From an uncultured Acidobacteriota bacterium (lineage in GTDB: Bacteria; Acidobacteriota; Vicinamibacteria; Vicinamibacterales; CAVVIG01), in assembly GCA_963794305.1 (NCBI GenBank), contig CAWCDQ010000012.1, positions 7,884-71,883 on the forward strand: a stretch of DNA of 64,000 bases, written 5' to 3'. Made by a program: the position numbers and the translations under genes. The notes beneath the pieces were generated by a model that ran no database searches, was not told the DNA's origin, and saw only the letters and a list, made by a program, of their open reading frames with translations. Shown here piece by piece: positions 15,861 to 40,959 of this stretch. How positions within the stretch are numbered: the stretch's first letter is position 1; each line of letters starts with the position of its first letter.

Positions 15861-16703
15861 ATGCGACCACGCGCGACAGCGCGCCTGCGTCTGCCGTCGC
15901 GCGCGACTCTCGCCTGGGTTTTCGCTGCGCTCCTCGCAGCGCCCGCGACCGCACACGCTCAGACAGACGAAATCCAGGTGTACGACGGCGGTCTCGCGCC
16001 GGTCGGCGTATTCAATCTCACCGTTCACAACAACTTCACGCCGATTGGAGTCACGAAGCCGGCGTTTCCCGGCGCGGTGATCGCGGACAAGTCGTTCAAC
16101 GGCGTGCCGGAGTGGGCGCTGGGCGTCACGCCGTGGTTCGAGGCCGGGCTCTACCTGCCGCTGTACAGCAGGGACAAAGTCACCGGCTTCGGCCTGGACG
16201 GGTTCAAGTTGCGGGCGCTGTTCGCCGTGCCGAACGCGGACGATCGACGGTTCTTCTACGGCGCAAACTTCGAGTTCAGCGTCAACGCGCACCGGTGGGA
16301 CACCGCGCGCTTCAGCTCGGAGGTGCGCCCCATCATCGGCTGGCACCTCAAGCCGATCGACATCATCATCAATCCCATCGTCGACACCGCGTACGACGGG
16401 CTGAAGAACCTCGAGTTCGTGCCGGCGACGCGCGTGGCGTACAACTTTTCCTCGGGCTGGACGCTGGCGGCCGAGGAGTACGCCGATTTCGGACCAATCC
16501 ACGCGTTCGCGCCGCGCGGCGAACAGGTACACCAGATTTACGCCGTGGTGGATCGCACCTGGAAGGAATGGGAGATCGAGGGCGGCATCGGCGTGGGGTT
16601 GACCGACGCGTCGGACCGTCTCACGTTCAAGCTGATTCTCGCGCGCGACCTGAACAAGCACTCTACCGGTCGTTCGAGTGTTCCTGCGCCCGCGCACCCA
16701 TGA
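15861..16703 (+). CDS. outer-membrane beta-barrel protein (MetA-pathway/transporter-like)
   Basis: Intact 280 aa. Signal peptide ending AHAQ, alternating beta-strand pattern with aromatic girdle residues, and a start motif TDEIQVYDG. Confidence 0.55.
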   Translation: MRPRATARLRLPSRATLAWVFAALLAAPATAHAQTDEIQVYDGGLAPVGVFNLTVHNNFTPIGVTKPAFPGAVIADKSFNGVPEWALGVTPWFEAGLYLPLYSRDKVTGFGLDGFKLRALFAVPNADDRRFFYGANFEFSVNAHRWDTARFSSEVRPIIGWHLKPIDIIINPIVDTAYDGLKNLEFVPATRVAYNFSSGWTLAAEEYADFGPIHAFAPRGEQVHQIYAVVDRTWKEWEIEGGIGVGLTDASDRLTFKLILARDLNKHSTGRSSVPAPAHP

Positions 16704-17572
16704 GCATGCCGATCATGCTGCGCGCGTTCCCTTCGTGGCACGCGTACTCGTAGATCGGACCGGCCGTTTTCTTCAGCGGAAACATGGCCGTGAACGGTCG
16801 CGTCCACGTCGACGGATCCTCGGCCGTGAACCTGATACTCGATCGTGTCGGCATCGGTGCGCGTGAAGCGTTCGACCAGATGCAGGTGCTCGGTCGATCC
16901 CCGAAATGCCGTCTTGTCGGTGAAGCCGACCGTGTCGACGACCAGCGTCGAGCCTTCCCAGCGTCCGCGTGAATCGCCCATCCATCGCGGGATCTCGCCG
17001 TGCGCACGGCCATCCATCGGCACGATGCGCGCGTCGTGGATCATCTCGGACACGATCGCCACGTAGCCGCGCGTCTGGATGATCTGGACGTTGTTGTTGT
17101 AGACGCCCGGCAGCATCGGCGGCCCCGCGACGGACCAGTTGAGGCACCGTTCGTTGAGGGCCCGATCCTCCGGGCCGTCGGCCGGGCCGCGCGCGCGTCG
17201 CGCCTGAGCCCGCGCCGCCGCGCGCTGCTGCGCCTCGGCGGTCTGCGCCGGCACCCGTCCGTCGGTCGGATCGACGATGAGCGACGTGCGGCCGTTGGTC
17301 AGGAACCGCGTGCCGGGATCCCACCAGTCGGGCCCCGCCGTATTGTTCGTGGTGCTCTGACGCTCGATGGTCGCCCGCTCGTATTCGGCGGCTTCCGCCG
17401 GCGTGAGCGTCGCCCTCGCGGCGAGGTCGCGCGGCCGCTCGAGCGGCGTCATCGTCGCGTAGGTCCAGATGCCTTCGAGGTCGCCGGAGGCGGGATGCTG
17501 CGCGTGAATCGCCAGCGATGCCGCCAGGATTGACGCGACGAGACTGCACGCCGCCGACGCGCGATAGGCCAT
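16663..17572 (-). CDS. conserved secreted hypothetical protein, paralogue 1 (1 frame break near 16830)
   Basis: Signal peptide (LVASILAASLAIHAQ). The core LIVDPTDGRVP..YNNNVQIIQTRGYVAIVSEMIHDARIVPMDGR..WEGSTLVVDTVGF..HLVERFTR continues in ORF 16663-17013 (..PIYEYACHEGN..). By eye it is about 50% identical to CDS 27543-28476. Confidence 0.6.
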
Positions 17573-20901: not shown

Positions 20902-21185
20902 TCGCTACCGCCAAGACAACTCCGTCTCGATTGCGGACGCCAGCCGCGCTTCAAGTCATGAAAGCGAAATCACGTTGAGAGGGCCTTGCCGGCCCATCCG
21001 GTAGAGCTTACGCAGTCGCGCGGCGAATGGTTGACCTTACGAGTTCCGCACGGATTCTTTTCACCGCAACCTCACTTTTCTCTCACCCATCCCTCACACG
21101 CCGCTCTCGCGCTGTTCATAGCATTCATCAAGCAAGTCGTAGTAGGCCACGAGGGGCCGCGGCTGACGACGGGCAAGGAGTGTTC

Positions 21186-23591
21186 ATGAGCAAACGACAG
21201 CTTTTCGTTCGGATTCTGGCGGCGGCACTACTCGTCGGGCCATTCCTGTTGAGCGGGGCGGAATGGGCCGGCAGCGGACCGGCATCGGCGGCATCGAAAA
21301 AACACAGAGCGGCTGCGACGCGGTCGAGCCCCATCGCCATCACTCACGACGACGCCTTCGTCTGGAGCGTCAATCCCGACAACGATTCGGTCTCCGTGTT
21401 CCGTGTTCCGAACGACGAGAACATCAAGGTCGCCGAGATTGCGGTGGGCAAGGAACCGTGGTGCGTGGCCGTCACGCCGGACGATGAGAAGGCCTACGTG
21501 ACGAACATGGCGAGCGGCACGGTGTCGGTCATCAGCACGTTCAGCAGACAGGTCATCGACACAATCAAGGTTGGCACCGAACCATTTGGCTGCGCTATCA
21601 GCCCGGACGGGAGGGATCTGTACGTTGCGAATCAATCGTCAGGCACCGTTTCGGTGATCAACACGCGGCGCGACAAAGTAACCGAGACGATCGAAAACGT
21701 CGGCGTCAAACCGCACGGCATCGCGATCAGCGCTGACGGCGCGCGCGTGTTCGTCACGCAGTTCCTCGCCCTGAAACCCGAAGACGATCCGCGCCCCTTG
21801 ACACAGAGCGAAGGGGCTGACGACGGGCGCGAGGGGCGCGTGACCGTCATCAAGGCCAGCAACAACAAGGTCATCGGCACGATCCGGCTGACGCCGCTCG
21901 CCGACGTCGGGGCCGCCTTCAGGTCTGACGGCAACACCCTGAATCGTGAGCCGCTCAGCGGCACCCTGGACAACGTGACGGGAGCGTTTCCGAACCTGCT
22001 CGAGTCGATCACGATCAAGGATGACCTCGCATACATCCCGGGCACGTGCTCGTCGCCCAACGGGCCATTCCGGTTCAACGTCAATGTTCAGAGCTGCCTC
22101 TCCACCATCGACATCAAGGAGAAGACTGAAGCGTTCAAGACCCTCAACATGAACGTCGGCGTCAACTTCGAGCCCGTGGGCAGGAAGCTGTTCAACACCA
22201 ACCCATTCGCGGTCGCGTTCAAGCAATCGGCCGACGAAGGGTTCATCACCCTGGGGGCAACGAATCGGCTGCTCCGGGTCACGCTGAACAGCGACGGGTC
22301 CCCGACGATCAATCCGCCGCTCAACGCGAATGACCCAGGCAACATCGTTCGCATACAACTCAAGGATCCGGGCGAAATCAACCTGCCCGATCCCGACGAC
22401 ACGATTGGCGGACACAACCCTCGCGGCGTCGTCTTGAACTCGGACGACACCCGCGCTTACGTCATGGACTTTCTCTCGCGCGACATCGCCATCGTCGACG
22501 TCTCGGGAAATGATCCGCAGCTCTACAGGACGCTCGCGAGAGTGCAGTCGGCCGATCTGCCGGCGGCCGGCACCGATGCAGGGGTCGCGCACCGCGGCAA
22601 ATATCTGTTCAACACCGCGATCGGGCCGGAAGGAAGTCAGCCGAACTCGGTGCGCCCGTCGGGCCGGATGTCCGACACCGGGTGGGGGTCCTGCTACAGC
22701 TGCCACCCCAATGCGTTGACCGACACGGTCACGTGGATGTTCGCCGATGGGCCGCGGCAGGCGATCTCGATGGAGAGCACGTTTGAGTTCGGCGCGGCGA
22801 CGATCGCGAATGGCGCACCCGTTCTGCCCGATTCGCATCAGCGCGCGCTGAACTGGTCAGCGGTACGGGATGAAGTGCAGGACTTCACGCGTAACGTCCG
22901 GGCAGTGTCCGGCGGTGGCGGGCTGGTGAGAGTCGATGCGAACGGCAATCCCGTGCCCGAAGGGACAGCCGGTCTGGCGCAGCTGCCGGATCTGCGGCCG
23001 ACGGCCAACGGCGGTCTGAATGCCGACCTGGACGCCATCGCCACTTATCTGGCAACAGGCGTGCGGGCGCCGATTTCGCCGATTCCGGCGCACAACGTGC
23101 GGGCGGCGATCGGCCGCGCGATCTTCGAAGTTCAGGGTTGCCAGAACTGCCACGGCGGCAAGAACTGGACGATCAGCGCGCTTGACTCCGCACCGCCGCC
23201 GCTCGCCACCGAGGTTGTGGACGCACAGCTGGTCAGGTTCCTATGCCGCGTCGGCACGTTCGATCCGTCCCTCTTCACCGACGGCGTGAGCAACGAGATT
23301 CGCGCCAATGCCGCAGCCAACACGCAGGCGCGCGGCACACTCGGCTTCAACGTGCCGTCGCTCATCTCGGTGTTTGCAAGCGCCCCCTACCTGCACAGCG
23401 GCGCGGCGGCGTCGCTGGATGACGTGCTCGCAAACGTGACACACCGCACGGCCGGCCGCGCCGACCGCGCGGACTTCCTGGGCGTCCCGGCATTTCGCCG
23501 GTTCCTCGTTCAGTTCCTGAGGTCAATCGATCGCGATACACCGCCAGTCCTCGACGTCAACCCGCCGCTGGACGTCTGCGGACCCCAATAG
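21186..23591 (+). CDS. secreted YVTN-type beta-propeller protein with two c-type haem motifs
   Basis: SD AAGGAG before ATG 21186, then a signal peptide. YVTN repeats (KAYVTNMASGTVSVIS.., DLYVANQSSGTVSVIN..). CxxCH appears twice (CYSCHP, CQNCHGG) in the C-terminal third, resembling a di-haem peroxidase/MauG. Confidence 0.75.
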   Translation: MSKRQLFVRILAAALLVGPFLLSGAEWAGSGPASAASKKHRAAATRSSPIAITHDDAFVWSVNPDNDSVSVFRVPNDENIKVAEIAVGKEPWCVAVTPDDEKAYVTNMASGTVSVISTFSRQVIDTIKVGTEPFGCAISPDGRDLYVANQSSGTVSVINTRRDKVTETIENVGVKPHGIAISADGARVFVTQFLALKPEDDPRPLTQSEGADDGREGRVTVIKASNNKVIGTIRLTPLADVGAAFRSDGNTLNREPLSGTLDNVTGAFPNLLESITIKDDLAYIPGTCSSPNGPFRFNVNVQSCLSTIDIKEKTEAFKTLNMNVGVNFEPVGRKLFNTNPFAVAFKQSADEGFITLGATNRLLRVTLNSDGSPTINPPLNANDPGNIVRIQLKDPGEINLPDPDDTIGGHNPRGVVLNSDDTRAYVMDFLSRDIAIVDVSGNDPQLYRTLARVQSADLPAAGTDAGVAHRGKYLFNTAIGPEGSQPNSVRPSGRMSDTGWGSCYSCHPNALTDTVTWMFADGPRQAISMESTFEFGAATIANGAPVLPDSHQRALNWSAVRDEVQDFTRNVRAVSGGGGLVRVDANGNPVPEGTAGLAQLPDLRPTANGGLNADLDAIATYLATGVRAPISPIPAHNVRAAIGRAIFEVQGCQNCHGGKNWTISALDSAPPPLATEVVDAQLVRFLCRVGTFDPSLFTDGVSNEIRANAAANTQARGTLGFNVPSLISVFASAPYLHSGAAASLDDVLANVTHRTAGRADRADFLGVPAFRRFLVQFLRSIDRDTPPVLDVNPPLDVCGPQ

Positions 23592-23736: not shown

Positions 23737-24621
23737 CTACGTCGGAACCGGCGAATCCGGATGCGTCGAATATCGTCCGCCGCCGCTGGGTTTCGCGATG
23801 AAGTCGCCCCAGTTCACGTCGGCCCAGACCTTGAGCTTCGTGTCGTACAGGAAAATCGTCGAGTCCGGCTGACGCGCGCAGGACAGATGCAGGACCGCGC
23901 GATAGAGCGCATCGAGCGTGGGGCGGTAGTGGCCGCTGTTCGCGCTGATCTTCTTCAGCTTTCCCTTCCGCACGATCCACTCGCCGGCGCAGATCACGCC
24001 GTCAGTTCCGAACGAGCTGTGATGCACCTGCTTGAGCTGGCAGACCGATGAATAGAACGTCACGTCGTCCGAGCCGGGCGGACACATGCACACCCACATG
24101 ACGCCCTCGTCGCGCCAGTCGTCGGGCACGGGAAACTCCACGCCGTTGGCGGCGCCCAGCTTGGCCGCTCCCTGCGGCGGCAACAGGCCCTTGATCGTTC
24201 CGGTGTCGAGGACCTGACCGTCGAGCCGCGTCATGGTGGACTCGATCTTCACGACGAACGGCTGTCGTTGCGCGTCGACGTAGCGCGCCACGTGGTTGAG
24301 CCGATCGTATTCGTAAAGGTCGGCGTCAAGCGGAAGGTTGATGCGCTTGTACTCCGTGTCCGGCTCTAGCAGACCCTTCTTGGGTTTCTCCGGCCCCTTG
24401 TCCGTGAACTTGTACGGCCCGCTCGGCGGCGTCACCGAGGCCTGCCGGAGGAGTGGCGGCTTCTCTTCCGGCGGCGGCTTCAGGACGTCCATCGGCAGGC
24501 GAGTCAGCGGCGGCTTGAAGAAGAGTTCGATGACCGGGTCTTTCTCGGCGGCGACCACGGCGGCGTCGTGATCGGCCTTGTCGTACTTGTCGTAACGCGA
24601 GTTGGCAGGCGGAAAAGCCAT
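23737..24621 (-). CDS. hypothetical protein (orphan, 294 aa)
   Basis: Intact ORF with normal third-position GC bias. No signal peptide. The N-terminus is Pro/Lys-rich and probably disordered. The C-terminal globular part holds clustered Cys/His (VMWVCMCPPGSDD..QVHHSSFGTDGVICAGEW..ANSGHYRPT). No family recognised. Confidence 0.6.
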   Translation of the reverse strand: MAFPPANSRYDKYDKADHDAAVVAAEKDPVIELFFKPPLTRLPMDVLKPPPEEKPPLLRQASVTPPSGPYKFTDKGPEKPKKGLLEPDTEYKRINLPLDADLYEYDRLNHVARYVDAQRQPFVVKIESTMTRLDGQVLDTGTIKGLLPPQGAAKLGAANGVEFPVPDDWRDEGVMWVCMCPPGSDDVTFYSSVCQLKQVHHSSFGTDGVICAGEWIVRKGKLKKISANSGHYRPTLDALYRAVLHLSCARQPDSTIFLYDTKLKVWADVNWGDFIAKPSGGGRYSTHPDSPVPT

Positions 24622-24700: not shown

Positions 24701-24706
24701 TATAAT
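24701..24706 (+). promoter_or_regulatory. consensus -10 hexamer TATAAT, 9 nt upstream of the TTG start at 24716
   Basis: Read directly. A perfect TATAAT is rare in this GC-rich DNA. Confidence 0.35.
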
Positions 24707-24715
24707 CCGGGCATC

Positions 24716-27082
24716 TTGCGCACCATTTCACTCTTAGCGGTGAGCGGAATCGCGATCGCCGCGACACTGGCCGCGCACGCGCAGAGTGTGAATCGCGGCT
24801 GGACGATCGTCGGCGCCGAGATGGCGGATGGCAGCGGTGCGCCGCTGCGGCATGCGAACGTCCGCTTCGTCAACGACCGCATCGTCGCGGTCGGCGATGT
24901 GAAGCCACAAAAGGGCGACGAAGTCGTGGACGGCAAGGGGCTCGTCGTCGCGCCAGGCTTCATCGACATTCACAACCACTCATCGTCCGGCCTGGCGGAC
25001 GATCCGGCCGCCGAGACGCAGATCGCGCAGGGGATCACCACCGTGGTGCTCGGGCCCGACGGCGATTCTCCCTGGCCGATCGGCGAGTACCTCTCGGAGC
25101 GACGGCGCGCGCCCTCGTCCGTCAACGTCGCCACGTTTGTCGGGCATGCCACCGTGCGACGGCAGGTGATGAAGGACGACTACAAGCGCGCCGCCCGGGC
25201 CGAGGAGGTCGCGCGGATGGCGCTGCTCGTCGATCAGGGCATGCGCGAGGGCGCGGCCGGGCTGTCGAGCGGCCTCGAGTACGAAGTGGGCGGCTATGCC
25301 GAGACGAGCGAGCTCGTCGAGCTCGCAAAGGTGGTGGCGCGCTACGGCGGCGTCTACATGTCGCACATACGCGACGAGGCCGACAAGAGCTTCGACGCGC
25401 TGAAGGAAGCGATCGCGATCGGTGAAGGTGCCCACGTCGCCGTGCAGATCTCCCACATCAAGCTCGGCACCGTCGGCGTGTGGCGCAAGAGCGCCGAAGC
25501 GATTGCGCTGATCGAAGGCGCGCGCGCACGCGGCGTGGACGTGACCGCGGACGCGTATCCCTACAATGCGTGGAGCTCGACGATCACAGTGCTGGTGCCC
25601 GACAAGCGGTACGACCATCCGCCGAGCGTCGAGAAGGCGCTCGCCGACGTGGGCGGCGCCGCCAATGTGCTCATCGTCCGCCACGCGGCGCATCCGGACT
25701 ACGAGTTCCGCACGCTGGAGGCCGTGGCGAAGGAGCAGCACAAGACGCCGGTCGATCTGTTCATCCAGATCGTCAAGGACGGCGGCGCCGGCGTCGTCTG
25801 TACCTCGATGGTCGACGAGGATATTCGTGCGTTCTACTCGCGCCCGTGGGTGATGGTCGCGAGCGACGGCGGCATTGCGACGCGACATCCGCGCGGCGCC
25901 GGCACCTTTCCACGCGTGCTCGGCCGCTACGTCCGCGACGATCGGTGGCTGACGCTGCCCGAGGCGATCCGGAAGATGACCAGCGCGCCGGCCGCCAGGC
26001 TCCGCCTCGAAGGCCGCGGGCATATCGAGGTCGGCGCGATTGCCGACCTCGTGCTGTTCAACGCCAAAACGATTGTTGACCGGTCGACGTTCACCGATCC
26101 GGCGGTTCTGCCGACCGGCGTCGAAAAAGTGTTCATCGGCGGCGAGCTCGCGTGGGACAACGGCAAGCCGGCGCCGGCGAGGCCGGGGAAAGTGCTGATG
26201 TCCGGCCACACGCCGGCGGAGACCGATGCGGGCGCCTATCGCCTGGTTCCGAACTGGGGAACGTTGCCGGCCGGCCTTCAGTTCGGCGAGGTGCCCGGCA
26301 TGACGATCGACGACGCGGGACGCGTGTTCGCGTTCACGCGCGCCGAGCCGCCGGTCATCGAGTTCGACCCGTCGGGCAAGGTTCTCAAGACGTGGGGCGA
26401 GAAGATGTTCGTCTGGCCTCACGGCATCCGTGTGGATCGCAACGGGTTCCTGTGGATCACCGACGGCCGCGCGCGCAACGGCATCGGACAGCAGGTGTTC
26501 AAGTTCACGCGCGACGGTCAGCTGGTGATGACGCTCGGCAAGAAGGGCGTGTCAGGCGACGGCCCGGACACCTTCAACAGCCCCACCGACGTCGCCGTCG
26601 CGCCAAACGGTGACATCTTCGTGTCGGACGGCCACGTCAACTCGCGCATCGTGAAGTTCTCGAGCGACGGCACGTTCATCAAGGCCTGGGGCAAGCGCGG
26701 CGAAGGTCCCGGCGAGTTCAACGTGCCTCACACGATGTTCTTCGACTCGCGCGGCCGGCTGCTCGTCGGCGATCGCGCCAATCGCCGGATCCAGATCTTC
26801 GACCAGGACGGGACGTTTCTCGATCAGTGGACGCAGTTCGGATCGCCCAGCGGCATCTTCATCGCGCCGGACGACACGCTCTATGTCGTCGACTACAACG
26901 ACAAGATGGCGCTCATCGTCGGCAACGCGAAGGATGGTTCGATACGGACGCGGAGCGAGCAGGTGCTGGCTGAAGGCGTGGCGGTGGACAAGCAGGGATC
27001 GATCTACGTCGGCGAAACCGTGATCGGCCACCTCGGCGACACAATCACCGGACACACGGTCAAGAAGCTGGTGAAAAAGTAG
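24716..27082 (+). CDS. N-acyl-D-amino-acid deacylase (D-aminoacylase) family amidohydrolase fused to a peptidyl-alpha-hydroxyglycine alpha-amidating lyase (PAL)-like NHL beta-propeller
   Basis: Intact 788 aa with a signal peptide (AIAATLAAHAQS). Amidohydrolase motifs: GFIDIHNHS, YMSHIRDE, ISHIKL, HPRGAGTFPRVLG. C-terminal NHL blades: WPHGIRVDRNGFLWITD, FNSPTDVAVAPNGDIFVSDGHVNSRIVKFSSDG, EFNVPHTMFF, VGDRANRRIQIFDQDG. Confidence 0.85.
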   Translation: MRTISLLAVSGIAIAATLAAHAQSVNRGWTIVGAEMADGSGAPLRHANVRFVNDRIVAVGDVKPQKGDEVVDGKGLVVAPGFIDIHNHSSSGLADDPAAETQIAQGITTVVLGPDGDSPWPIGEYLSERRRAPSSVNVATFVGHATVRRQVMKDDYKRAARAEEVARMALLVDQGMREGAAGLSSGLEYEVGGYAETSELVELAKVVARYGGVYMSHIRDEADKSFDALKEAIAIGEGAHVAVQISHIKLGTVGVWRKSAEAIALIEGARARGVDVTADAYPYNAWSSTITVLVPDKRYDHPPSVEKALADVGGAANVLIVRHAAHPDYEFRTLEAVAKEQHKTPVDLFIQIVKDGGAGVVCTSMVDEDIRAFYSRPWVMVASDGGIATRHPRGAGTFPRVLGRYVRDDRWLTLPEAIRKMTSAPAARLRLEGRGHIEVGAIADLVLFNAKTIVDRSTFTDPAVLPTGVEKVFIGGELAWDNGKPAPARPGKVLMSGHTPAETDAGAYRLVPNWGTLPAGLQFGEVPGMTIDDAGRVFAFTRAEPPVIEFDPSGKVLKTWGEKMFVWPHGIRVDRNGFLWITDGRARNGIGQQVFKFTRDGQLVMTLGKKGVSGDGPDTFNSPTDVAVAPNGDIFVSDGHVNSRIVKFSSDGTFIKAWGKRGEGPGEFNVPHTMFFDSRGRLLVGDRANRRIQIFDQDGTFLDQWTQFGSPSGIFIAPDDTLYVVDYNDKMALIVGNAKDGSIRTRSEQVLAEGVAVDKQGSIYVGETVIGHLGDTITGHTVKKLVKK

Positions 27083-27096
27083 CGCGGCTCGACGCG

Positions 27097-27546
27097 CTAT
27101 TTGATCTCCTGAAACCGCACTTCGAGATACGTCAGCGTTCCCTCCAGATCCTTGTACCAGTGCGGGGCGCCAGCCGGCACGAGCACGACATCACCTTTGG
27201 CCACGTGGCGCGTCTGGCCTCCCTCGATCGTCGCGCTGCCGGCCGCGGCTCCCGCGGCGCGGACGATGGCGCCGCCGGTCACGAGCGTGCCGGCGCCGCT
27301 GATGATGTGATGCACCTCGATGAATCCGGGGTGCGCGATGGCGCCCTGCGGCCTGGTTCGCTCGACGACGTTGATGCGGTAGTGATCCGTGTTTTGCACC
27401 GGCGCGGTGTGCATGTCGGGCGCGCTCTTCGCCGTTTCCTTGAGCGTCGCCGTCAATTCGGCATCGCTCAAGTAGGTGGCCGGCGCGGGCGCCCCGGTCT
27501 GGGCCGCACCCACCAGAGCGATCAACATGACGAGCGCCGACTTCAT
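27097..27546 (-). CDS. secreted cupin domain protein
   Basis: Start ATG 27546 (MKSALVMLIALVGAAQTGA) forms an ATGA overlap with the upstream gene's stop. Cupin strands: GFIEVHHIISGAGTLVTGG..GDVVLVPAGAPHWY. Confidence 0.7.
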   Translation of the reverse strand: MKSALVMLIALVGAAQTGAPAPATYLSDAELTATLKETAKSAPDMHTAPVQNTDHYRINVVERTRPQGAIAHPGFIEVHHIISGAGTLVTGGAIVRAAGAAAGSATIEGGQTRHVAKGDVVLVPAGAPHWYKDLEGTLTYLEVRFQEIK

Positions 27547-28476
27547 TTCTGCGTCTTCTGCTTCTGCTGATCCTCGAAGCGCGCGCCCTTCAGGACGCCT
27601 TCGAGACCGTAGTTGCTCTCGTGGCAGGCATATTCGTAAATCAATTCGTCGGTGCGCGTCATCGGGATGGAAGCGCTCCACTTCGCCGTCCACGTCGACG
27701 GATCGTCGACCGTGAACTCGTAGCGAAGCGTGTCCTTGTCCACGCGGGTGAACCGTTCCACCAGGTGCATTTTCGACGAAGCGCCCCGGAAGCCGGCCTC
27801 CTGCGAGAAATTGGTCGTGTCGACCACCAGCGTCTCGCCTTCCCAGTGCCCGACTGAATCACCGGTGAGCGACCTGATGTTCGCCGGTGCGTGCGGCCGG
27901 CCGTCCAGCGGCACGATGCGCGCGCTGTGAATCATCTCGTTCAGGATGACGACGTGGTCGCGCGTCTGCACCAGCTGCATGTTGTTGTTGTAGGCGCTGG
28001 GGATCATCGGCGGACCCGAGTTGAATCCCAGCACGCATCGTTCGGCGAGCGGCCGTTCCTCGGGGTTGTCGTACTTGCCGCGGCGATCGGCGGCGCGCTT
28101 CTGTGCCTCCGGGGTGAGCGGCGGGACGCGCCCGTCCGGCGGATCCACGACCAATGACGTCTGCTTCGCGATCCGCTTGCCGAAGTCCCACCAGAAGTCG
28201 TTGTAGGCGCGCTCGACGTCGGCGGCGGCGCCGCCGCCGCGATTGTCCTTGTTGCCGCTCTCGATCCGCTGCTGCGCGAACTCCTCCGCCTCCTCGTCGC
28301 TCAGGGAGCTTTTGCCGGCGAATGCGCCGGGACGTTCGAACGGCGTGAGCTGCGCGAAGTCCCACGTGCCCTGAAGGTCGGGGTGGCCGTCCGGCGTGGG
28401 CCACCTTCGGCTTCGCCGTCTGGCCGGAGACCACCACGGCGGAGAGGAGGAAAATCCCGAGGAAAACGGAACGCAT
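27543..28476 (-). CDS. conserved secreted hypothetical protein, paralogue 2 (1 frame break near 28395)
   Basis: ATG 28476 with signal peptide MRSVFLGIFLLSAVVVSGQ. After a 1-nt shift it reads PDGHPDLQGTWDF..LVVDPPDGRVP..YNNNMQLVQTRDHVVILNEMIHSARIVPLDGR..LIYEYACHESN. Paralogous to 16663-17572. Confidence 0.6.
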
Positions 28477-28505
28477 ACAGCCGCTCCTTTCGTCGTCGGG
28501 CCGAT

Positions 28506-28511
28506 TATAAT
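28506..28511 (+). promoter_or_regulatory. consensus -10 hexamer TATAAT upstream of 28529 (SD GGAGG at 28519-28523)
   Basis: Read directly in the 52-bp divergent intergenic region. Confidence 0.35.
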
Positions 28512-28528
28512 CGCGGCCGGAGGCGGGA

Positions 28529-29815
28529 ATGAGATTTGTGCCCTTGGCGCTTCGGGTCCCGGTCTTCGCTCTCGGGGTGCTGACCGCGGCGACGGTGTCG
28601 GCTCAGCAGTCGCCGAACCAGGTCACGTTCACGAAGGATGTGGCGCCGATTTTCCAGAAGTCCTGCCAGAACTGCCACCGGCCCGGCTCGATCGCCCCGA
28701 TGTCGCTGCTGACCTACGAGGACGCGCGTCCGTGGGCGCGGTCGATCAAACAGCGGGTCGAGGCGCGGCAGATGCCTCCGTGGCACGTCGATCGGACCGT
28801 TGGCATCCGGCAGTTCAAGGACGATCCGTCGCTCACGGATCAGGAAATCGAGACGCTCTCCGCGTGGGCCGCGGCGGGCGCTCCGCGCGGCAATCCGGCC
28901 GACATGCCTCCTCCGCGCCAGTTCGACGACGCCGATCGGTGGCATATCGGCAAGCCGGATCTCATCGTGCCGATGCCGAAGGCGTTCACGGTGAAGACCG
29001 AGGCCGCCGACTGGTGGGGCATCTTCGAAGCGGAATCCGGCCTTACGGAGGATCGCTACATCAAGGCGGTCGAAGCGAAACCGTCACCTGGAGCGCGACG
29101 CGTCGTGCACCACTCGGTCGAGACGCTCGTCTATAACGACGGCACGAGCGGCGGAGGGACCCTGGTCGAGTACGCCGTCGGCAAGAACGGCGACGTGTTC
29201 CCCGAAGGCTCGGGCAAGCTGATGAAAGCCGGCGCCAAGGTCCGCTTCAACATGCACTACCACGCCATCGGCGAGCCGGTCACCGATCGTACCGAGGTCG
29301 GCATCGTGTTCTACCCGAAGGGCGTCGTCCCGAAGCATGTGGTGACGACGATCCTGTCGCCGAACCAGGACGACCTCGACATCCCGGCGGGCGCCGACAA
29401 CGTGCGCAGCGACGCGTACTTCAAGATGGAGAAGCCGTCGCACCTGGTCGGCTTCATGCCGCACATGCACAATCGCGGCAAGCGCCAGTGCCTCGAGGCG
29501 ATCTATCCGGACATGCGCGTGGAACAGTTGAACTGCGTGAACTACGACTTCAACTGGCAGATCGTCTACAACTACGCCGACAACGTGGCGCCGCTGCTGC
29601 CGGCGGGAACGATCATGCACGTCATCAGCTGGCACGACAACTCGGCGGCGAACAAGTACAACCCGGATCCGAGAAACTGGGTCGGCTTCGGCAATCGCAC
29701 GACCGACGACATGTCGCGGCACTGGCTGACGTTCTACACGATGACCGACGAGGAGTTCAAAGCCGAAGTGGCCGCGCGCAACGCGTTGAAGGTCAAGAGC
29801 ACCAGCCAGCCGTGA
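28529..29815 (+). CDS. secreted c-type haem domain fused to a PHM/DBH-like copper type II monooxygenase fold
   Basis: Intact 428 aa with a signal peptide. N-terminal CxxCH (FQKSCQNCHRPGSIAPMSL..RQMPPW). It then carries, in the PHM order, HH (VVHHSVE), H (NMHYHAIG), HxH (MPHMHNRGK) and M (TDDMSRHWLTFY). Confidence 0.7.
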   Translation: MRFVPLALRVPVFALGVLTAATVSAQQSPNQVTFTKDVAPIFQKSCQNCHRPGSIAPMSLLTYEDARPWARSIKQRVEARQMPPWHVDRTVGIRQFKDDPSLTDQEIETLSAWAAAGAPRGNPADMPPPRQFDDADRWHIGKPDLIVPMPKAFTVKTEAADWWGIFEAESGLTEDRYIKAVEAKPSPGARRVVHHSVETLVYNDGTSGGGTLVEYAVGKNGDVFPEGSGKLMKAGAKVRFNMHYHAIGEPVTDRTEVGIVFYPKGVVPKHVVTTILSPNQDDLDIPAGADNVRSDAYFKMEKPSHLVGFMPHMHNRGKRQCLEAIYPDMRVEQLNCVNYDFNWQIVYNYADNVAPLLPAGTIMHVISWHDNSAANKYNPDPRNWVGFGNRTTDDMSRHWLTFYTMTDEEFKAEVAARNALKVKSTSQP

Positions 29816-30699
29816 ACAACCACGTCCGGAAGGAACCGCGGAGACCGCGGAAATCGCTGAGAAATATTTTGATCGTCTCCGCGTTCTTTGCGCTCTCTGC
29901 GGTTTCTTCCGTACGTGTCACCGCCCAGGTGCGCTATGCCACCGGCCAGGACGTCGTCCCGGTGTTCGAGGGCTGGGAGCGCAACGCCGACGGCAGCTTC
30001 AACATGGTCTTCGGCTACATGAACCGGAACTACGAGGAGGAGGTCGACGTGCCGGTCGGCCCCAACAACGCCCTCGAGCCGGGTGACGTCGATCAGGGGC
30101 AGCCGGCGCACTTCTACGCACGCCGTCAGCAATACGTCTTCTCGGTACGCGTGCCGAAGGATTGGGGCAAGAAGGATCTCGTCTGGACGCTGACGAGCCA
30201 CGGCAAGACGGAGAAGGCGTACGCGTCGCTGATGCCCGTCTGGGAGATCGACGCCGGCACCTATCAGCAGAATCGGGGTGGTCCCGGCGAGCTGGGCGAG
30301 CCTGACGATCCGCCGTCGATCAAGGTCGAAGGCGCGCCGCAGCGAACGATCGCCGCCGGCGCCGCGCTCACGCTCGATGCGTTCGTCACCGACGATGGCC
30401 GGCCGAGTGCGCGCCCGAGCCAAAGCGGTTCGAACGCGCGCGTCGAAGGTCCGCTGATGCAGGCGATGGTGCGCCTCGATCGCGGAGTGCGCCTGGGCGT
30501 CATCTGGGTCGTCTATCGCGGAGATGCGCACGCCGTGACGTTCGAGCCGCGCAAGGTTCCGGTGGCCGACGGGAAAGCCTCCACGTCCGTCAGATTCAGC
30601 GCGCCGGGCACCTACGTCCTCCGAGCCTATGCCGACGACGGCATCCTGGTTGCGGCCAAGGACGTCACCGTCACCGTGACGTCGGGTTCGGCGCGGTAG
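29812..30699 (+). CDS. hypothetical secreted protein, translationally coupled to the PHM-like gene
   Basis: GTG 29812 overlaps stop TGA 29813-29815. The apparent signal peptide (ILIVSAFFALSAVSSVRVTAQ) is encoded by a palindromic repeat element. The mature part (VRYATGQDVVPVFEGWERNADGSFNMVFGY..) ends in an Ig-like region. No family recognised. Confidence 0.55.
   Translation: MNNHVRKEPRRPRKSLRNILIVSAFFALSAVSSVRVTAQVRYATGQDVVPVFEGWERNADGSFNMVFGYMNRNYEEEVDVPVGPNNALEPGDVDQGQPAHFYARRQQYVFSVRVPKDWGKKDLVWTLTSHGKTEKAYASLMPVWEIDAGTYQQNRGGPGELGEPDDPPSIKVEGAPQRTIAAGAALTLDAFVTDDGRPSARPSQSGSNARVEGPLMQAMVRLDRGVRLGVIWVVYRGDAHAVTFEPRKVPVADGKASTSVRFSAPGTYVLRAYADDGILVAAKDVTVTVTSGSAR
29828..29910. repeat. palindromic copy of intergenic repeat family 2 (GGAAGRAACCGCGGAGACCGC..)
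   Basis: The left arm is GGAAGGAACCGCGGAGACCGCGGAAATCGCTGAGA. The reverse complement of the right arm is GGAAGAAACCGCAGAGAGCGCAAAGAACGCGGAGA. A third arm is at 31319-31356. Confidence 0.6.
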
Positions 30700-31497: not shown

Positions 31498-32500
31498 GTG
31501 CGCATTGTTTCTGCTCTGGTCATCGCCACCCTTGCCGTTTCAAGACCTGCCGTCGCGCAGCCACCAGGCACTCCCGCCGCGCCGGCGCAGGTGGCGACGC
31601 CGACCGACGTCCAGCCGGGCAGCATCAACAACGAGGACGTTCCCTATCCGTACCCGGTGTCGTATCTGCCATTCGTGTCGTACGGGCAGGACGTGCGCAT
31701 GGCCTACATGGACGTGCCGCCGGCAGGCCAGGCAAACGGACGCACGGTTGTTCTGCTGCACGGGATGAACTTCGCCGGTTTCTACTGGGCGAACGTGATC
31801 GACGTCCTCCGGAAGGACGGCTACCGCGTGGTCGTGACCGACCAGATCGGGTTTGGCCGATCGTCGAAGCCGATCATTCCCTACAACTTCCACGACATGG
31901 CGTTGAACACGAACCGGGTGCTGGAGCATCTCGGCATCGCGAAGGCGGCGATCGTCGGCCACTCGATGGGCGGGATGCTCGCCGCGCGCTTCGCTTCGTC
32001 GTATCCCGCGGTCACCGAGCGCGTCGTCTTGTACGACCCCATCGGGCTGACCGACGCGCGATTCGAGCGGCCCTTACCGCAGCACCGACGAGGTGTACAA
32101 AGGCATGCTGGCATTCAGCTATCAGCAGGCGTACGCCACGATCAAGCGCTACTTCCCGACGCCGGAGTCGTGGAAGCCCGAGTACGAAAAGCTGGTGCGG
32201 CTGATGTACGCGTGGACGCTGACCGGCGACTGGCCGCGGATGGCCATGGTGCGGACGCTGCTGCAGCAGATGGTCTATGCCGATCCGGTCGTCGACGATT
32301 GGGCGCACATCAAGGCGAAGGCCCTGGTGATTGGCGGTGAAAAGGACGGCCCTGATTTTCCGAAGCTGGCGAAACATGTCGCGGACACGATTCCCGGTGC
32401 GCAGCTCTACCTCGTGCCGAATGCCGGCCACGTCCTGCATTTCGAGACGCCGGATGTCTTCAACCGCGAGCTGTTGAAGTTCCTGAAAGCGAATCCCTGA
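31498..32500 (+). CDS. alpha/beta hydrolase (1 frame break near 32080)
   Basis: GTG start and a signal peptide. Motifs HGMNFAGFYW and the nucleophile elbow GHSMGG. The C-terminal half lies in ORF 32093-32500 (..LVIGGEKDGP..VPNAGHVLHFETP). Confidence 0.8.
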
Positions 32501-32501
32501 C

Positions 32502-33372
32502 ATGACCGACGAACCGTTGATTCGCGACATCTCCGACACCGCGCGGTGGATGGCCGTCTATCGCGCGCGGGAAACCGAGCGTGCGGACGCAGCGTTCAAG
32601 GATCCGTTCGCCCGCGCGCTGGCGGGCGAGCGCGGCGAGCGAATCGCCGACGCGATGAAGTTCAGCGACGAGAACGCGTGGTCGTTCATCGCGCGCACGC
32701 ATCTGTTCGATCGGTTCGTGACGAGACTCGCGCAGCACGGCGCGGACACGATCGTGAACCTGGCGGCCGGCCTCGACACGCGCCCGTACCGCATGGCAGC
32801 TGCCATCGTCGCTGCGCTGGGTGGAAGTCGATCTGCCGGATATCCTCGACTACAAGGAAGAGATTCTCGGCGACGCGAAGCCGGTGTGCGAACTGGAGCG
32901 TGTGCGCCTCGATCTGTCGAACGAAGACGGCCGCCGCGGCCTCTTCGCGGATCTCGGCCGCCGCGCGAAACACGTGGCGGTGATCTCGGAAGGCCTCGTC
33001 ATCTATCTCATGCCCGAGGCGGTTGCCGCGCTGGCGCGCGACCTGTCCGGCCCGCCGGCCTTTCAGCACTGGGTGCTCGATCTGGCATCGCCAGGATTGC
33101 TCGAGATGATGAAGCAGTCGGTGGGCAGCGCGATGAGCGCGGCCGGCGCACCGTTCCTCTTTGCGCCGGCGGAGGGTCCGCCATTCTTCGCGGCGCACGG
33201 GTGGCAGCCGATTGAAGTTCGCTCGCTCATCAAGTCGGCGGCAAAGCTCGGACGTCTGCCGCTCGCGCTGCGCATGTTCGCGATGCTGCCGGATTCCGAC
33301 GGTGCGCAGGGCAGCCGTCCGTGGTCGGCGGTGTGTCTGTTCGCGCGACAGTCGGCGCATAGGACGGCCTGA
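32502..33372 (+). CDS. class I SAM-dependent methyltransferase (leucine carboxyl / O-methyltransferase family) (1 frame break near 32800)
   Basis: DTARWMAVYRARE..FKDPFA..IVNLAAGLDTRPYR, followed in the second frame by VEVDLPDILDYKEEIL..VISEGLVIYL. Confidence 0.75.
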
Positions 33373-40275: not shown

Positions 40276-40959
40276 CTACCCTCTGTCTTTGAAGAAGAGG
40301 TACGGATCGATCGCCTTCCCCTTCCACCATTGTCTGTCGGCGTTCAACTCGAACACCGCGAAATGCAGATGCGGCGTATTCGGCGGCGCGTTGCCCGTCG
40401 TGCCGACGTAGCCGATCACGTCGCCCTGCGAGACCGCCATGCCTTCCTTCACGCCGTCGGCATACCGCTGCAGGTGCGCGTAGTAGTAACAGAGATGCCC
40501 GGACGGATCGAACTGGTAGATCGTGAGGCCGCCGGCCTTGCTGTTGAACAGCTTCGCGATCGTGCCGTTCTCGACGGCATGCACCGGCGTGTTGCGAGGG
40601 GCCAGGATGTCGGCCGCCTCGTGCGGCCGCTTGCTGCCGCGCGTCTCGGCGAAGCCGCCCTTGAGCGACTCGATCGTTTCGCCGTCGATCGGCATGCGGA
40701 GACGGCCACGCGGGATGTCGCCGGTCGTCGCCGTCGGTGACGGCGCGGCGCTGATGCGTGCGTCGGCCGGGCCGGCTGGGGCTGAAGCGCGCGCGTCACG
40801 CGCGTCGGTTGCAGGCGCCGGCTCGGCACGGAGGACGAGATCCGATCCCGTGGGCCTCGGCGGGCCGTGCGTCCGCAGCCAGCCGTCGACCGCCGCTCCC
40901 GCAGCGAACGCGGCGAGCAGCGCGAGTGGAATCGCGCCGCTGAAACGCTGCCTGCTCAT
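40276..40959 (-). CDS. M23 family metallopeptidase
   Basis: Start MSRQRFSGAIPLALLAAFAAGAAV (ATG 40959). Motifs HEAADILAPRNTPVHAV..GYVGTTGNAPPNTPHLHFAV. Confidence 0.85.
   Translation of the reverse strand: MSRQRFSGAIPLALLAAFAAGAAVDGWLRTHGPPRPTGSDLVLRAEPAPATDARDARASAPAGPADARISAAPSPTATTGDIPRGRLRMPIDGETIESLKGGFAETRGSKRPHEAADILAPRNTPVHAVENGTIAKLFNSKAGGLTIYQFDPSGHLCYYYAHLQRYADGVKEGMAVSQGDVIGYVGTTGNAPPNTPHLHFAVFELNADRQWWKGKAIDPYLFFKDRG

Follow-up and report, generated by a model that had tools for sequence, protein, structure and literature searches.

The window, the whole 64-kb stretch of DNA from a soil acidobacterium analysed here, carries gene D, whose predicted product joins a c-type cytochrome domain to a PHM-like core, and gene A, whose propeller resembles PAL. 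In animals, a PHM-type copper monooxygenase starts peptide amidation and a PAL-type lyase completes it. Near D and its constant partner gene, E, PAL-like NHL genes are clearly found above background, and their adjacency to this haem-fused protein points tentatively to a bacterial pathway of two steps, as yet uncharacterised. We give an even chance to the whole reading, in which D and E would form a haem-driven hydroxylase, A would be a hydrolase-lyase, and PAL-like propellers would be recurrent but facultative downstream partners. The observations of an earlier note on this DNA are confirmed and its interpretation is partly supported. Features are collected in Table 1.

Table 1. Features of the region and their positions in the window
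Feature	Position	Strand	Details
C paralogue	16681..17542 (about)	-	44-47% identity with intact homologues of C across the main aligned stretch
TATAAT hexamer, perfect	24701..24706	+	10 nt upstream of A's TTG start
Gene A	24716-27082	+	TTG start, 788 aa; predicted signal peptide ~aa 1-23
A N-terminal amidohydrolase domain, aa 29-497	24800..26206	+	D-aminoacylase / N-acyl-D-amino-acid deacylase type
A C-terminal six-bladed NHL propeller, aa 505-788	26228..27079	+	PAL-like, signature R542-H569-H640-H672-R687-E753
Cupin	27097-27546	-	149 aa, small, secreted; Cupin_2 E 1e-6; convergent with A
Gene C	27543..28476	-	secreted; 934 nt here, 311-313 aa in intact homologues
Palindrome ATTATAAT	28504..28511	.	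inside the 52-nt divergent intergenic region; TATAAT at 28506-28511
Gene D	28529-29815	+	428 aa, secreted; GGAGG 5 nt upstream of ATG
D class-I c-type cytochrome domain, aa 30-125	28616..28903	+	C46-x-x-C49-H50; M82 in MPPW, candidate axial ligand
D first beta-sandwich, aa 140-275	28946..29353	+	CuH-domain equivalent (hhalign); pLDDT 76-92
D second beta-sandwich, aa 280-410	29366..29758	+	CuM-domain equivalent (hhalign); model confidence low in parts
Gene E	29812-30699	+	295 aa, GTG start overlapping D's TGA as GTGA

The haem-fused PHM-like protein D and its partner E

In D, a signal peptide is followed by a c-type haem domain and then by a PHM/DBH-like core of two domains; the sequence contains the motifs CQNCH, VVHHSVE, NMHYHAIG, MPHMHNRGK and TDDMSRHWLTFY. 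When the D family is aligned by hhalign to rat PHM, H194, H195 and H243 pair with the CuH ligands H107, H108 and H172, while H312, H314 and M395 pair with the CuM ligands H242, H244 and M314. The earlier proposal that these residues follow the order and spacing of the PHM ligands holds, as all six align and are invariant, together with CxxCH and M82, in 76 homologues (49-92% identity) and 26 paralogues (38-45%). The motif matches thus go beyond coincidence. Pocket positions 310, 397 and 399 vary among the same sequences. A structural comparison agrees: the best Foldseek matches of the D model are PHM (3mll, E 1e-4, probability 1.0) and human DBH, although AlphaFold gives only a mediocre model of D (pLDDT 64, falling under 50 in some of the CuM domain, and an rmsd to PHM of 8-10 A). 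D is thus predicted to have the PHM/DBH fold with a complete putative set of copper ligands, as in PHM (the PAM core; 1PHM, 1OPM, 3MLL) and DBH (4ZEL; Pfam PF01082 and PF03712), which likewise comprise two beta-sandwich domains.

The sequence relationship is distant. The window's D matches no copper-monooxygenase model of Pfam even at E<=10 and none of NCBIfam at E<=0.01, and PHM is not among the matches in PDB sequence searches; the PF01082 and PF03712 models miss D because its sequence is too remote. Within the D family, 12 of 76 members match Cu2_monoox_C (best E 2.3e-5) and 8 match Cu2_monooxygen. For A, profile searches find both Amidohydro_3 and NHL; for D, the Cytochrome_CBB3 match (E 3.7e-5) lies under the gathering score. 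The remoteness of D from PHM, with an hhalign probability of about 30% (28-35% against the rat sequence), could mean that D is no oxygenase: copper bound by its conserved His and Met residues would instead serve in electron transfer or copper handling, or in a reaction of the oxidase/reductase kind, and the haem would be its redox partner. H245 is an extra invariant His with no ligand counterpart in PHM, conservation of H364 and H369 is confined to close homologues, and copper chaperones and cupredoxin-like proteins likewise have His/Met copper sites on beta-sandwiches. We nevertheless consider this very improbable, as D has the full PHM ligand set across both domains, shares the local motifs HxHxxGK and (T/S)xD(D/E)M with PHM, and is matched by Foldseek to PHM and DBH over ~300 aligned columns rather than to chaperone or cupredoxin folds.

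We infer that D is a PHM/DBH-class two-copper monooxygenase fused to haem c. As the earlier note had described, a secreted CxxCH domain precedes the PHM-like core, and with the invariant Met82 it appears compatible with electron entry. Electrons would pass from the periplasmic respiratory pool to the c-type haem (CxxCH and Met82) and on to the His3 copper site (H194, H195 and H243), with O2 binding and C-H hydroxylation of the substrate at the His2Met site (H312, H314 and M395). Since the haem would feed electrons to the copper, it may stand in for the ascorbate on which the animal enzymes depend. Compared with PHM and DBH, D is bacterial and predicted to be periplasmic, carries an N-terminal cytochrome domain and has no DOMON domain; its gene has an obligate partner encoding an Ig-like protein and occurs in tandem arrays of paralogues, and the disulfide pattern of PHM is presumably not kept. 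In PHM, R240, N316 and Y318 hold the glycine carboxylate and backbone; D does not conserve them, so the peptidyl- or N-acyl-glycine specificity suggested earlier is unsupported.

Judged by its sequence relatives, D belongs to a very large, unannotated and mainly acidobacterial family; searched with the D-family profile, it has 17188 representatives at E<=0.001, a number that falls to 2829 with a limit of E<=1e-30. The same profile recovers, at E 1e-70 to 1e-156, longer uncharacterised bacterial proteins of the form AhpC/TSA (redoxin) - cytochrome c - Cu2_monoox_C. These share the haem and PHM-like core with D but have an extra N-terminal thiol-redoxin and often a C-terminal EF-hand, hydrolase or TPR, whereas D lacks these and pairs with E. 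The AhpC/TSA domain would be another electron-input module on a common core.

The earlier note recorded E as a translationally coupled unknown. The coupling stands, through the GTGA overlap, but E had gone unrecognised as the constant partner of D, with which it is paired in 82 of 84 loci; in tandem arrays, which contain up to four diverged copies of the D-E pair, the numbers of E and D genes are roughly equal. In the predicted model, E has a hydrophobic helix at its N terminus, followed by two beta-sandwich domains of Ig-like type whose structural matches are generic tandem-Ig only, and conservation analysis finds no conserved His, Cys, Met or metal ligands among E homologues. E is probably membrane-anchored and may serve D as a non-catalytic Ig-like subunit or anchor.

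An amidohydrolase joined to a PAL-like propeller

The product of A is predicted to be a secreted fusion of an amidohydrolase and a PAL-like propeller. Its D-aminoacylase-type half, correctly recognised before, matches Amidohydro_3 with 89.6 bits against a cut-off of 29.7 (Pfam, E 4e-25), and its best PDB matches are 9g5m (E 1e-69) and D-aminoacylase of Alcaligenes faecalis (1M7J, E 1e-68), which aligns end to end with the first 500 residues; N-acyl-D-glutamate deacylase (3GIP) is a further known relative. A retains the HxH motif (H86, H88), the two His that follow and the catalytic Asp; the metal-ligand Cys96 of D-aminoacylase is replaced by Asp115, and the score falls under the NCBIfam subfamily cut-off (184 versus 340 bits). 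Unlike D-aminoacylase, the domain is secreted and joined to a PAL-like propeller. The earlier note took the fusions in A and D for novel, but neither is unique: besides the large D family, about 60 clusters hold full-length amidohydrolase-NHL fusions at 73-96% identity. In one locus (L173) the two halves are encoded by neighbouring separate genes.

PAL (rat PAM 498-820, 3FVZ) is likewise a six-bladed NHL propeller, fused in PAM to PHM where A has the amidohydrolase. The A propeller contains VWPHGIRVD, LWITDG, FNSPTDVAVAPNGDIFVSDGHVNSRIVKFSSDG, FNVPHT and DRANRRIQIF and is 39% identical to rat PAL 559-717 over 165 residues (E 6e-33). The match to the PAL core claimed in the earlier note is only partial: these motifs, the identity and four of the six active-site residues (PAL R533, H585, H690 and R706) stand, but Tyr654 is replaced by His640 (SDGH rather than SDGY, as had been noticed), His786, the third zinc ligand, by Glu753, and the calcium-site Asp787 by Gly; Met784 is also replaced, by Leu. 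Nor does overall homology lie nearer to PAL than to generic NHL proteins, as HMMER scores the propeller higher for TRIM2/3 (113.6 bits) than for PAL (105.7 bits), and the PAL-likeness would thus reside only in active-site residues. Across an alignment of 63 sequences, the window's domain and 62 fusions, about 60 share the signature in Table 1, which is also present in 67 metagenomic relatives. Stand-alone NHL neighbours of D-E elsewhere keep PAL H585, Y654, H690, R706 and H786, some also R533.

A may therefore be bifunctional, the first half acting as a metal-dependent member of the N-acyl-D-amino-acid deacylase family and the second as a PAL-like metallo-propeller with a 2-His-1-Glu site, His for the catalytic Tyr and both substrate-binding Arg. 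In the sequence of reactions that we propose, D would hydroxylate the carbon beside an amide nitrogen and, as happens in eukaryotic PAM, a PAL-like enzyme would then cleave the carbinolamide; the amidohydrolase half of A would act on a neighbouring amide bond.

Association of D-E with A and PAL-like NHL genes

Associations were counted in 84 species loci of D with flanks of 10 kb. Fifteen NHL genes lie within 10 kb of D, all with PAL H690 and R706 and 14 with H585; 11 have Y654 and H786, and three have the H/E variant of A. Nine of the 15 are within 500 bp of D or E, against 1.29 expected (placement test, P<5e-6). Direct adjacency of a PAL-like NHL gene to D or E has at least four independent forms, including the same-strand, operon-like orders aminotransferase-NHL-D-E (L045), D-E-NHL (L118) and cupin-NHL-D-E (L101). 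Co-occurrence, which the earlier note had set beforehand as its point of refutation, exceeds background for PAL-like NHL genes, but the partnership of D-E with the A fusion is not obligatory.

The neighbourhood could be coincidental, with D-E a self-sufficient cytochrome-c-driven copper hydroxylase, A an unrelated secreted deacylase or lyase held nearby by inherited synteny, and the other adjacencies a product of the abundance and tandem duplication of NHL genes in Acidobacteriota. An amidohydrolase like that of A is near D in none of the 84 loci, and 69 have no PAL-like gene within 10 kb. Of eight A-lineages, three (L085/86, L088 and L173) lack D-E near the A orthologue, and D and E are both missing from 77 of the 80 metagenomic loci surrounding A-type NHL genes, although many of these contigs are short. 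PAL-like NHL genes come in several copies, often in tandem (a second copy in 8 of the 80 metagenome loci), six Vicinamibacterales array loci represent one inherited arrangement, the closest D homologues with long flanks (L001, L002) adjoin a ribosomal-protein/EF-G cluster, and A and D have separate promoters. Against this, the placement test remains significant with related loci collapsed (4 of 10 NHL genes within 500 bp versus 0.72 expected, P=0.004), the adjacencies involve two PAL subtypes, with three of the gene orders same-strand with short gaps, and in five of the eight A-lineages D-E lies 1-3.3 kb downstream of A, a linkage maintained from 73 to 96% identity despite changes in the genes between them. 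We regard coincidence as possible but rather doubtful.

Conservation of D is very high, its best 120 homologues among the matches listed being 71-96% identical to the query, and most sampled Vicinamibacterales and Bryobacteraceae genomes have at least one copy. Together with the translation genes beside D-E in L001 and L002 and the constant, probably anchored E, which suggests a fixed location, this would suit a housekeeping modifier of an envelope or periplasmic macromolecule (e.g., a protein, lipid or glycan residue), outside any catabolic or amidating small-molecule route and with PAL-like enzymes uninvolved. Such a role seems unlikely to us: the arrays of diverged D-E pairs and their varying pocket residues resemble the substrate diversification typical of catabolic enzymes, D-E neighbours include a P450, PQQ dehydrogenase, molybdenum hydroxylase, TPP enzyme and aminotransferase, and PAL-like genes recur beside D-E.

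Promoters, the cupin and gene C

Perfect TATAAT hexamers precede both A and D, as reported earlier. The window holds four, against 0.92 expected, each 10-28 nt upstream of a start codon; A, D and a downstream hydrolase each have their own and hence do not form one operon. The hexamer before A implies an own promoter, with a leader that would be very short or absent, and the palindrome ATTATAAT is a candidate -10 element shared by D and the divergent C. The region may comprise three separate transcription units (D-E, A and C-cupin) with periplasmic or secreted products.

C and the cupin, the latter identified as before, would be two small secreted proteins recurring in the same neighbourhoods. 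The C stop and cupin start overlap as ATGA, coupling the cupin translationally to C upstream. Cupin homologues occur beside A orthologues or D-E in L003, L087, L088, L089, L101, L172 and L173, and a partial one in L171. In 22 of the 84 loci a C homologue lies no more than 10 kb from D, and C homologues adjoin PAL-like NHL genes in L027, L094 and L116; C itself has no match in Pfam, NCBIfam or the PDB. What had been listed as one CDS has no single open frame, being frameshifted near 28395, just past the signal peptide, relative to intact homologues. As the window holds many further frameshifts relative to orthologues, an assembly error is the probable cause here. The paralogue of C noted earlier is present elsewhere in the window and is likewise frameshifted, at about 16830.

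Gene layout and assembly quality

The window has a G+C content of 65%, and five proteins are encoded at 24.7 to 30.7 kb: A, a fusion of an amidohydrolase and a PAL-like NHL propeller; a small cupin; C, a secreted protein of no known family; D, which joins a cytochrome c to a PHM-like protein; and E, the Ig-like partner of D. By inspection, all five have hydrophobic N-terminal segments resembling signal peptides. D and E overlap by GTGA, and C and the cupin by ATGA. The closest public relatives are metagenome-assembled Vicinamibacterales and other Acidobacteriota.

Features of the window (window coordinates) and of comparison loci from other genomes and metagenomes (L numbers)
Feature	Position	Strand	Size or remark
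A	24716-27082	+	788 aa
Small cupin	27097-27546	-	
C, unknown protein	27543-28476	-	frame not intact
D	28529-29815	+	428 aa
E	29812-30699	+	295 aa
Secreted beta-propeller protein	21027-23591	+	854 aa
Gene between the propeller protein and A	23737-24621	-	294 aa
Probable flavin oxidoreductase	18991-20901	+	636 aa
TATAAT hexamers	24701, 28504/28506, 31474		A's hexamer 10 nt from TTG start
Frameshift-split genes	31498-32500, 32502-33372, 34975-36705, 36775-38389, 40959-41952, 16681-17542, 27543-28476		
Unfused amidohydrolase and PAL-like NHL genes	L173, 8001-10369		494 aa and 294 aa; stop and start abut
C homologue directly upstream of PAL-like NHL gene	L027, 2060-3814	same strand	
C homologue directly upstream of PAL-like NHL gene	L094, 224-1817	same strand	
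C homologue directly upstream of PAL-like NHL gene	L116, 3618-4971	same strand	
Array of four D and three or four E, capped by canonical PAL-like gene	L042, 10001-20806; also L044, L049, L052, L058, L059		about 10 kb
NHL adjoining E-D-D'-E'	L018		
NHL adjoining D'-E'-E-D	L028		
Aminotransferase-NHL-D-E	L045	one strand	
D-E-NHL	L118	one strand	
Cupin-NHL-D-E	L101	one strand	second A-type NHL gene facing

Every motif quoted for A and D in an earlier reading of the sequence is present, as are the TATAAT hexamers it placed before both genes. This hexamer occurs four times in the 64-kb window, against 0.92 expected, each time 10 to 28 nt upstream of a start codon (A, D, C, and a downstream alpha/beta-hydrolase gene); that of C lies on the opposite strand, as the palindrome ATTATAAT. 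Upstream of A and of D, a sigma-70 scan returned -10 hexamers only and no complete -35/-10 promoter. From the placement, transcripts in this organism may have very short leaders or none, and since each has its own hexamer close before its start, A and D appear to be transcribed separately, each with a very short leader.

C, previously read as one open frame, shifts frame near 28395 relative to intact homologues of 311 to 313 aa. When compared with orthologues that are 75 to 90% identical (L086 and L087), frameshifts are also seen in genes for a hydrolase, an LCM methyltransferase, two large unknown proteins, YkuD, and a paralogue of C. With so many such shifts across the window, an indel-error-prone assembly is the likely cause in C, and we judged it more likely than a pseudogene. 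The frames of A, D, and E are intact despite these errors.

Other genes lie just upstream. The C-terminal region of the YNCE/lactonase-type beta-propeller protein bears a weak resemblance to di-haem cytochrome c peroxidase, MbnH, and RoxA, which would place a periplasmic haem enzyme next to the region. The gene that follows it matches nothing in Pfam or NCBIfam, and none of the 84 D-centred loci contains a homologue. Farther upstream is a gene for what is probably a secreted flavin oxidoreductase, bearing a GGGISG dinucleotide-binding motif and a twin-arginine-like signal (RRDFLNGVA).

A D-aminoacylase-type amidohydrolase fused to a propeller

The first 500 residues of A form a D-aminoacylase-type amidohydrolase (Pfam Amidohydro_3, PF07969, 89.6 bits versus a cut-off of 29.7). 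Its best solved relatives, 9g5m (E = 1.5e-69) and the Alcaligenes D-aminoacylase 1m7j (E = 1.5e-68), are similar over the full length. The metal and catalytic residues of the Alcaligenes faecalis enzyme we take to be His67, His69, Cys96, His220, His250, and Asp366; on that numbering, the HxH pair, both further histidines, and the catalytic Asp align with identical residues in A, and Cys96 aligns with Asp115. The N-terminal half is a fairly ordinary member of the D-aminoacylase family, and stand-alone amidohydrolases very similar to it are common. The fusion itself recurs in about 60 clusters at 73 to 96% identity. In L173, an amidohydrolase 86% identical to that of A and a PAL-like NHL protein are encoded by separate, abutting genes: either A is unfused here or a frameshift splits the fusion. 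Their adjacency argues that the two halves work together.

The last 288 residues constitute an NHL propeller (Pfam NHL, E = 4e-20) with six blades readable in the alignment. PAL, the lyase half of the animal amidating enzyme PAM, shares 39% identity with it over 165 residues (E = 6e-33; rat sequence, identical to PDB 3fvz and 5wm0). Active-site residues were mapped in an alignment of 63 sequences, comprising the window's domain and 62 full-length fusions. PAL R533, H585, H690, and R706 correspond to R542, H569, H672, and R687 of A, each conserved in 60 of the 63, so that the substrate-binding Arg pair of PAL (Arg533 and Arg706) is kept. The third zinc ligand, His786, is replaced by Glu753 (likewise in 59 of 63), making a 2-His-1-carboxylate metal site possible. 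As the earlier note had pointed out, the catalytic Tyr position (Tyr654) reads His (His640), a residue that the subfamily keeps, and Gly replaces the calcium-site Asp787. The propeller thus resembles PAL in its active-site pattern yet lacks both the catalytic Tyr and the third His, which are defining features of PAL.

Whole-domain HMMER scores do not single out PAL, which reaches 105.7 bits in one register versus 113.6 bits for TRIM2. TRIM71 scores 140 bits, a sum of overlapping repeat registers of which the best single one gives 63 bits, and its alignment lacks the active-site His residues. As judged from these alignments, the propeller is PAL-like by active-site pattern, absent from the aligned TRIM71, and not by whole-domain score. 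Its R-H-H-H-R-E signature defines a sizeable bacterial subfamily and is found in 67 metagenomic relatives.

PAL-like NHL genes of different subtypes often occur as adjacent pairs (L100, L102, L107, L116, L120, L122, L137, and L156), in which an A-type copy (R-H-H-H-R-E) is accompanied by a more divergent one, sharing 27 to 54% identity with A's domain. In L101, the locus for which the signature of the second copy was read, it is canonical (R-H-Y-H-R-H).

D, a putative haem-fused copper monooxygenase, and its partner E

Direct Pfam and NCBIfam scans with D, and sequence and profile searches of the PDB, detect its cytochrome c part only, and weakly. Of the domains proposed in the earlier note, Amidohydro_3 and NHL are recovered in A and cytochrome c in D, the last below the gathering score (24.4 versus 27 bits); the copper monooxygenase models PF01082 and PF03712 do not match the window's D even at E ≤ 10. 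As direct searches went no further than the cytochrome, the link to PHM, the hydroxylase half of PAM, required a fold search, scans of single family members, and hhalign. Among 76 D relatives, 12 match PF03712 (Cu2_monoox_C; best E = 2.3e-5) and 8 match PF01082 (Cu2_monooxygen; best E = 7e-3).

The AlphaFold model of D, derived from 41 sequences, reaches moderate quality only (pLDDT 64), with a good first beta-sandwich and a second that is poor in parts. A Foldseek search of the PDB with this model gives rat PHM and human dopamine beta-hydroxylase (DBH) as best matches (probability 1.0, about 300 columns), with E = 1e-4 and a TM score on target of 0.43 to 0.47 for PHM, and the two-domain beta-sandwich core of copper type II monooxygenases (PHM/DBH/TBH) is found in this moderate-quality model. 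When the D family was compared by hhalign with the rat PHM sequence from the PDB, D H194, H195, and H243 aligned with the ligands of the first copper site, CuH (His107, His108, and His172), and H312 and H314 with those of the second, CuM (His242 and His244). M395 pairs with PHM M314 (GNRTTDDMSRHWLTFY versus GGTSSDEMCNLYIMYY) only in the extended, low-confidence part of the alignment. The hhalign probability is only 28 to 35%, as PHM entered the comparison as a single sequence.

This alignment is backed by three independent observations. The six candidate copper ligands, together with CxxCH and Met82, are invariant in 76 homologues drawn from the 84 loci, nearly all from species-representative genomes; they are also invariant in 26 paralogues that are only 38 to 45% identical; and individual members match the Pfam models. 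The haem motif (C46, C49, and H50) and distal M82, likewise invariant, are features of class I c-type cytochromes. We hold the assignment of D to the PHM/DBH fold and ligand set to be very probable. The remote sequence similarity to PHM would also suit a copper/haem protein that is not an oxygenase; with all six ligand positions invariant, we consider such a protein highly improbable.

In PHM, Arg240, Asn316, and Tyr318 hold the glycine carboxylate and backbone. None is kept in D, where M310, R397, and W399 align, and the residues there differ from one paralogue group to another (E/Q, I/T/F/H/S, and L/I/W, respectively). Peptidyl-glycine is therefore not predicted as the substrate of D. Although proposed to work like PHM and DBH, D is at most a remote superfamily member, as it falls below Pfam thresholds, lacks the PHM substrate residues, differs in its electron-entry module, and has an obligate partner.

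That partner, E, follows D in 82 of 84 loci, both exceptions being truncated contigs, and tandem arrays hold roughly one E per D. It consists of an N-terminal helix and two Ig-like sandwiches with no conserved His, Cys, or Met, and a structure search with its model returned generic tandem-Ig matches only, without a functional clue. We read E as a non-catalytic subunit or anchor of D.

A D-family profile search of 1.84 billion cluster representatives yielded 17188 relatives at E ≤ 0.001, of which 2829 are at E ≤ 1e-30. Public annotation of D reads only "cytochrome c" or "hypothetical protein." Among the longer relatives scanned, 8 of 10 carry an N-terminal AhpC/TSA redoxin on the cytochrome c-Cu2_monoox_C core, so a PHM-like core joined to an electron-input module seems to be how the family is generally built. 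In these proteins (P0252, P0292, P0312, P0318, P0346, P0358, and P0374 among them), a thiol-redox module may feed the same core; some have extra EF-hand, alpha/beta-hydrolase, GAF, or TPR domains.

Association of D-E with PAL-like genes and a possible pathway

The earlier note named the genomic association of PHM-like and PAL-like genes among the tests of their pairing. The pairing is not obligatory, but PAL-like NHL genes do lie beside D or E above chance placement. No PAL-like gene occurs within 10 kb of D in 69 of the 84 D-centred loci, and none of the 84 has an amidohydrolase like that of A within this distance. The 15 NHL genes found near D all have H690 and R706, and all but one have H585; Y654 is present with H786 in 11, and A's variant in 3. 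Nine of these 15 lie within 500 bp of D or E, whereas placing them at random in the loci where they occur predicts 1.29 (P < 5e-6). Counting the six related Vicinamibacterales array loci as one leaves 4 of 10 versus 0.72 (P = 0.004). PAL-like propellers are hence recurrent, facultative neighbors of D-E, well above chance placement within the same loci.

Within these arrays, gene orders such as D-E, D-E, E-D, D-E are seen, and the canonical PAL-like gene at the end is on the opposite strand. The D paralogues have diverged, keeping all haem and copper ligands and differing at pocket positions.

For A itself, D-E lies 1 to 3.3 kb downstream in the window and in L087, L170, L171, and L172, at identities down to 73%, and the genes between (cupin, C, PadR, and others) turn over in the A clade. 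Three of eight A lineages (L085/86, L088, and L173) lack D-E in otherwise syntenic surroundings, and among 80 metagenomic loci around A-type NHL genes, many on short contigs, 3 have D or E and 77 have neither. These absences would fit a merely coincidental synteny of A and D-E; set beside the repeated downstream position of D-E and the adjacency of other PAL-like genes to D, we think coincidence somewhat unlikely. A version in which the two are unlinked and D-E is an indel-prone insertion was dropped, as the NHL neighbors proved to be PAL-like and adjacent and more A orthologues with D-E downstream came to light. The closest D homologues with long flanks adjoin a ribosomal-protein/EF-G cluster, which speaks against an obligatory link and might be expected of a housekeeping hydroxylase unrelated to PAL. 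The excess of PAL-like genes within 500 bp points the other way, and we regard a housekeeping role as improbable.

We propose that D acts in the periplasm as a PHM/DBH-type monooxygenase with two coppers. In place of ascorbate, the c-type haem fused to it would pass respiratory-chain electrons to the His3 copper site; O2 activation and hydroxylation of a C-H bond would take place at the His2Met site, with E holding or positioning D. With a PAL-like propeller alongside, the simplest reading is PAM logic, in which hydroxylation next to an amide nitrogen would be followed by metal-assisted carbinolamide cleavage. As the window's propeller is fused to an N-acyl-D-amino-acid-deacylase-type hydrolase, substrates with N-acylated amino-acid termini are suggested. 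The analysis establishes which domains are present, that the ligands are conserved, that D pairs with E, and that the adjacency to PAL-like genes is not random; metal binding, the route of the electrons, activity, coupling, and substrate are inferred. We give this scheme as a whole, including the coupling of D to PAL-like enzymes, an even chance.

A bolder version, which we hold to be a long shot, is a periplasmic, ascorbate-free PAM counterpart of Acidobacteriota with split genes. D, with E, would hydroxylate the alpha-carbon of N-acyl or peptidyl residues ending in glycine or a D-amino acid, the PAL-like propeller would release the amide and a 2-oxo acid, and A's D-aminoacylase-type domain would act on that N-acyl-D-amino-acid substrate class as well. 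PHM abstracts the pro-S hydrogen of glycine, which corresponds to the alpha-hydrogen position in a D-residue, and the pituitary enzyme also accepts C-terminal D-Ala. If true, the route could mineralise peptidoglycan-derived or other D-amino-acid-containing necromass and would mark a prokaryotic ancestry of PAM's two halves.

PHM, DBH, and TBH are textbook animal copper enzymes in which the electron supply and the cooperation of the distant copper sites are still debated. Our literature search found no work on bacterial PHM-like or PAL-like proteins or haem-fused forms, and no characterised bacterial member. What is new here is a large unannotated D family, its apparent built-in replacement for ascorbate, its tandem diversification, and its facultative, statistically supported link to PAL-like genes, which bears on the origin of peptide amidation. 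Carrying the six PHM ligands and, as its presumed electron donor, a covalent haem, the family would offer a natural ascorbate-free model system and, given the tandem arrays, new C-H hydroxylases whose pockets have diversified. Together with its recurrent PAL-like neighbors, it would give a concrete, testable handle on whether peptide amidation has a prokaryotic origin. A further possibility is a so far unknown route of oxidative C-N cleavage in abundant soil bacteria.

C has no relative in Pfam, NCBIfam, or the PDB. Its homologues occur within 10 kb of D in 22 of the 84 loci and, as they also lie directly upstream of PAL-like NHL genes, C may be tied to the lyase and not to D-E. Cupin homologues recur in related neighborhoods.
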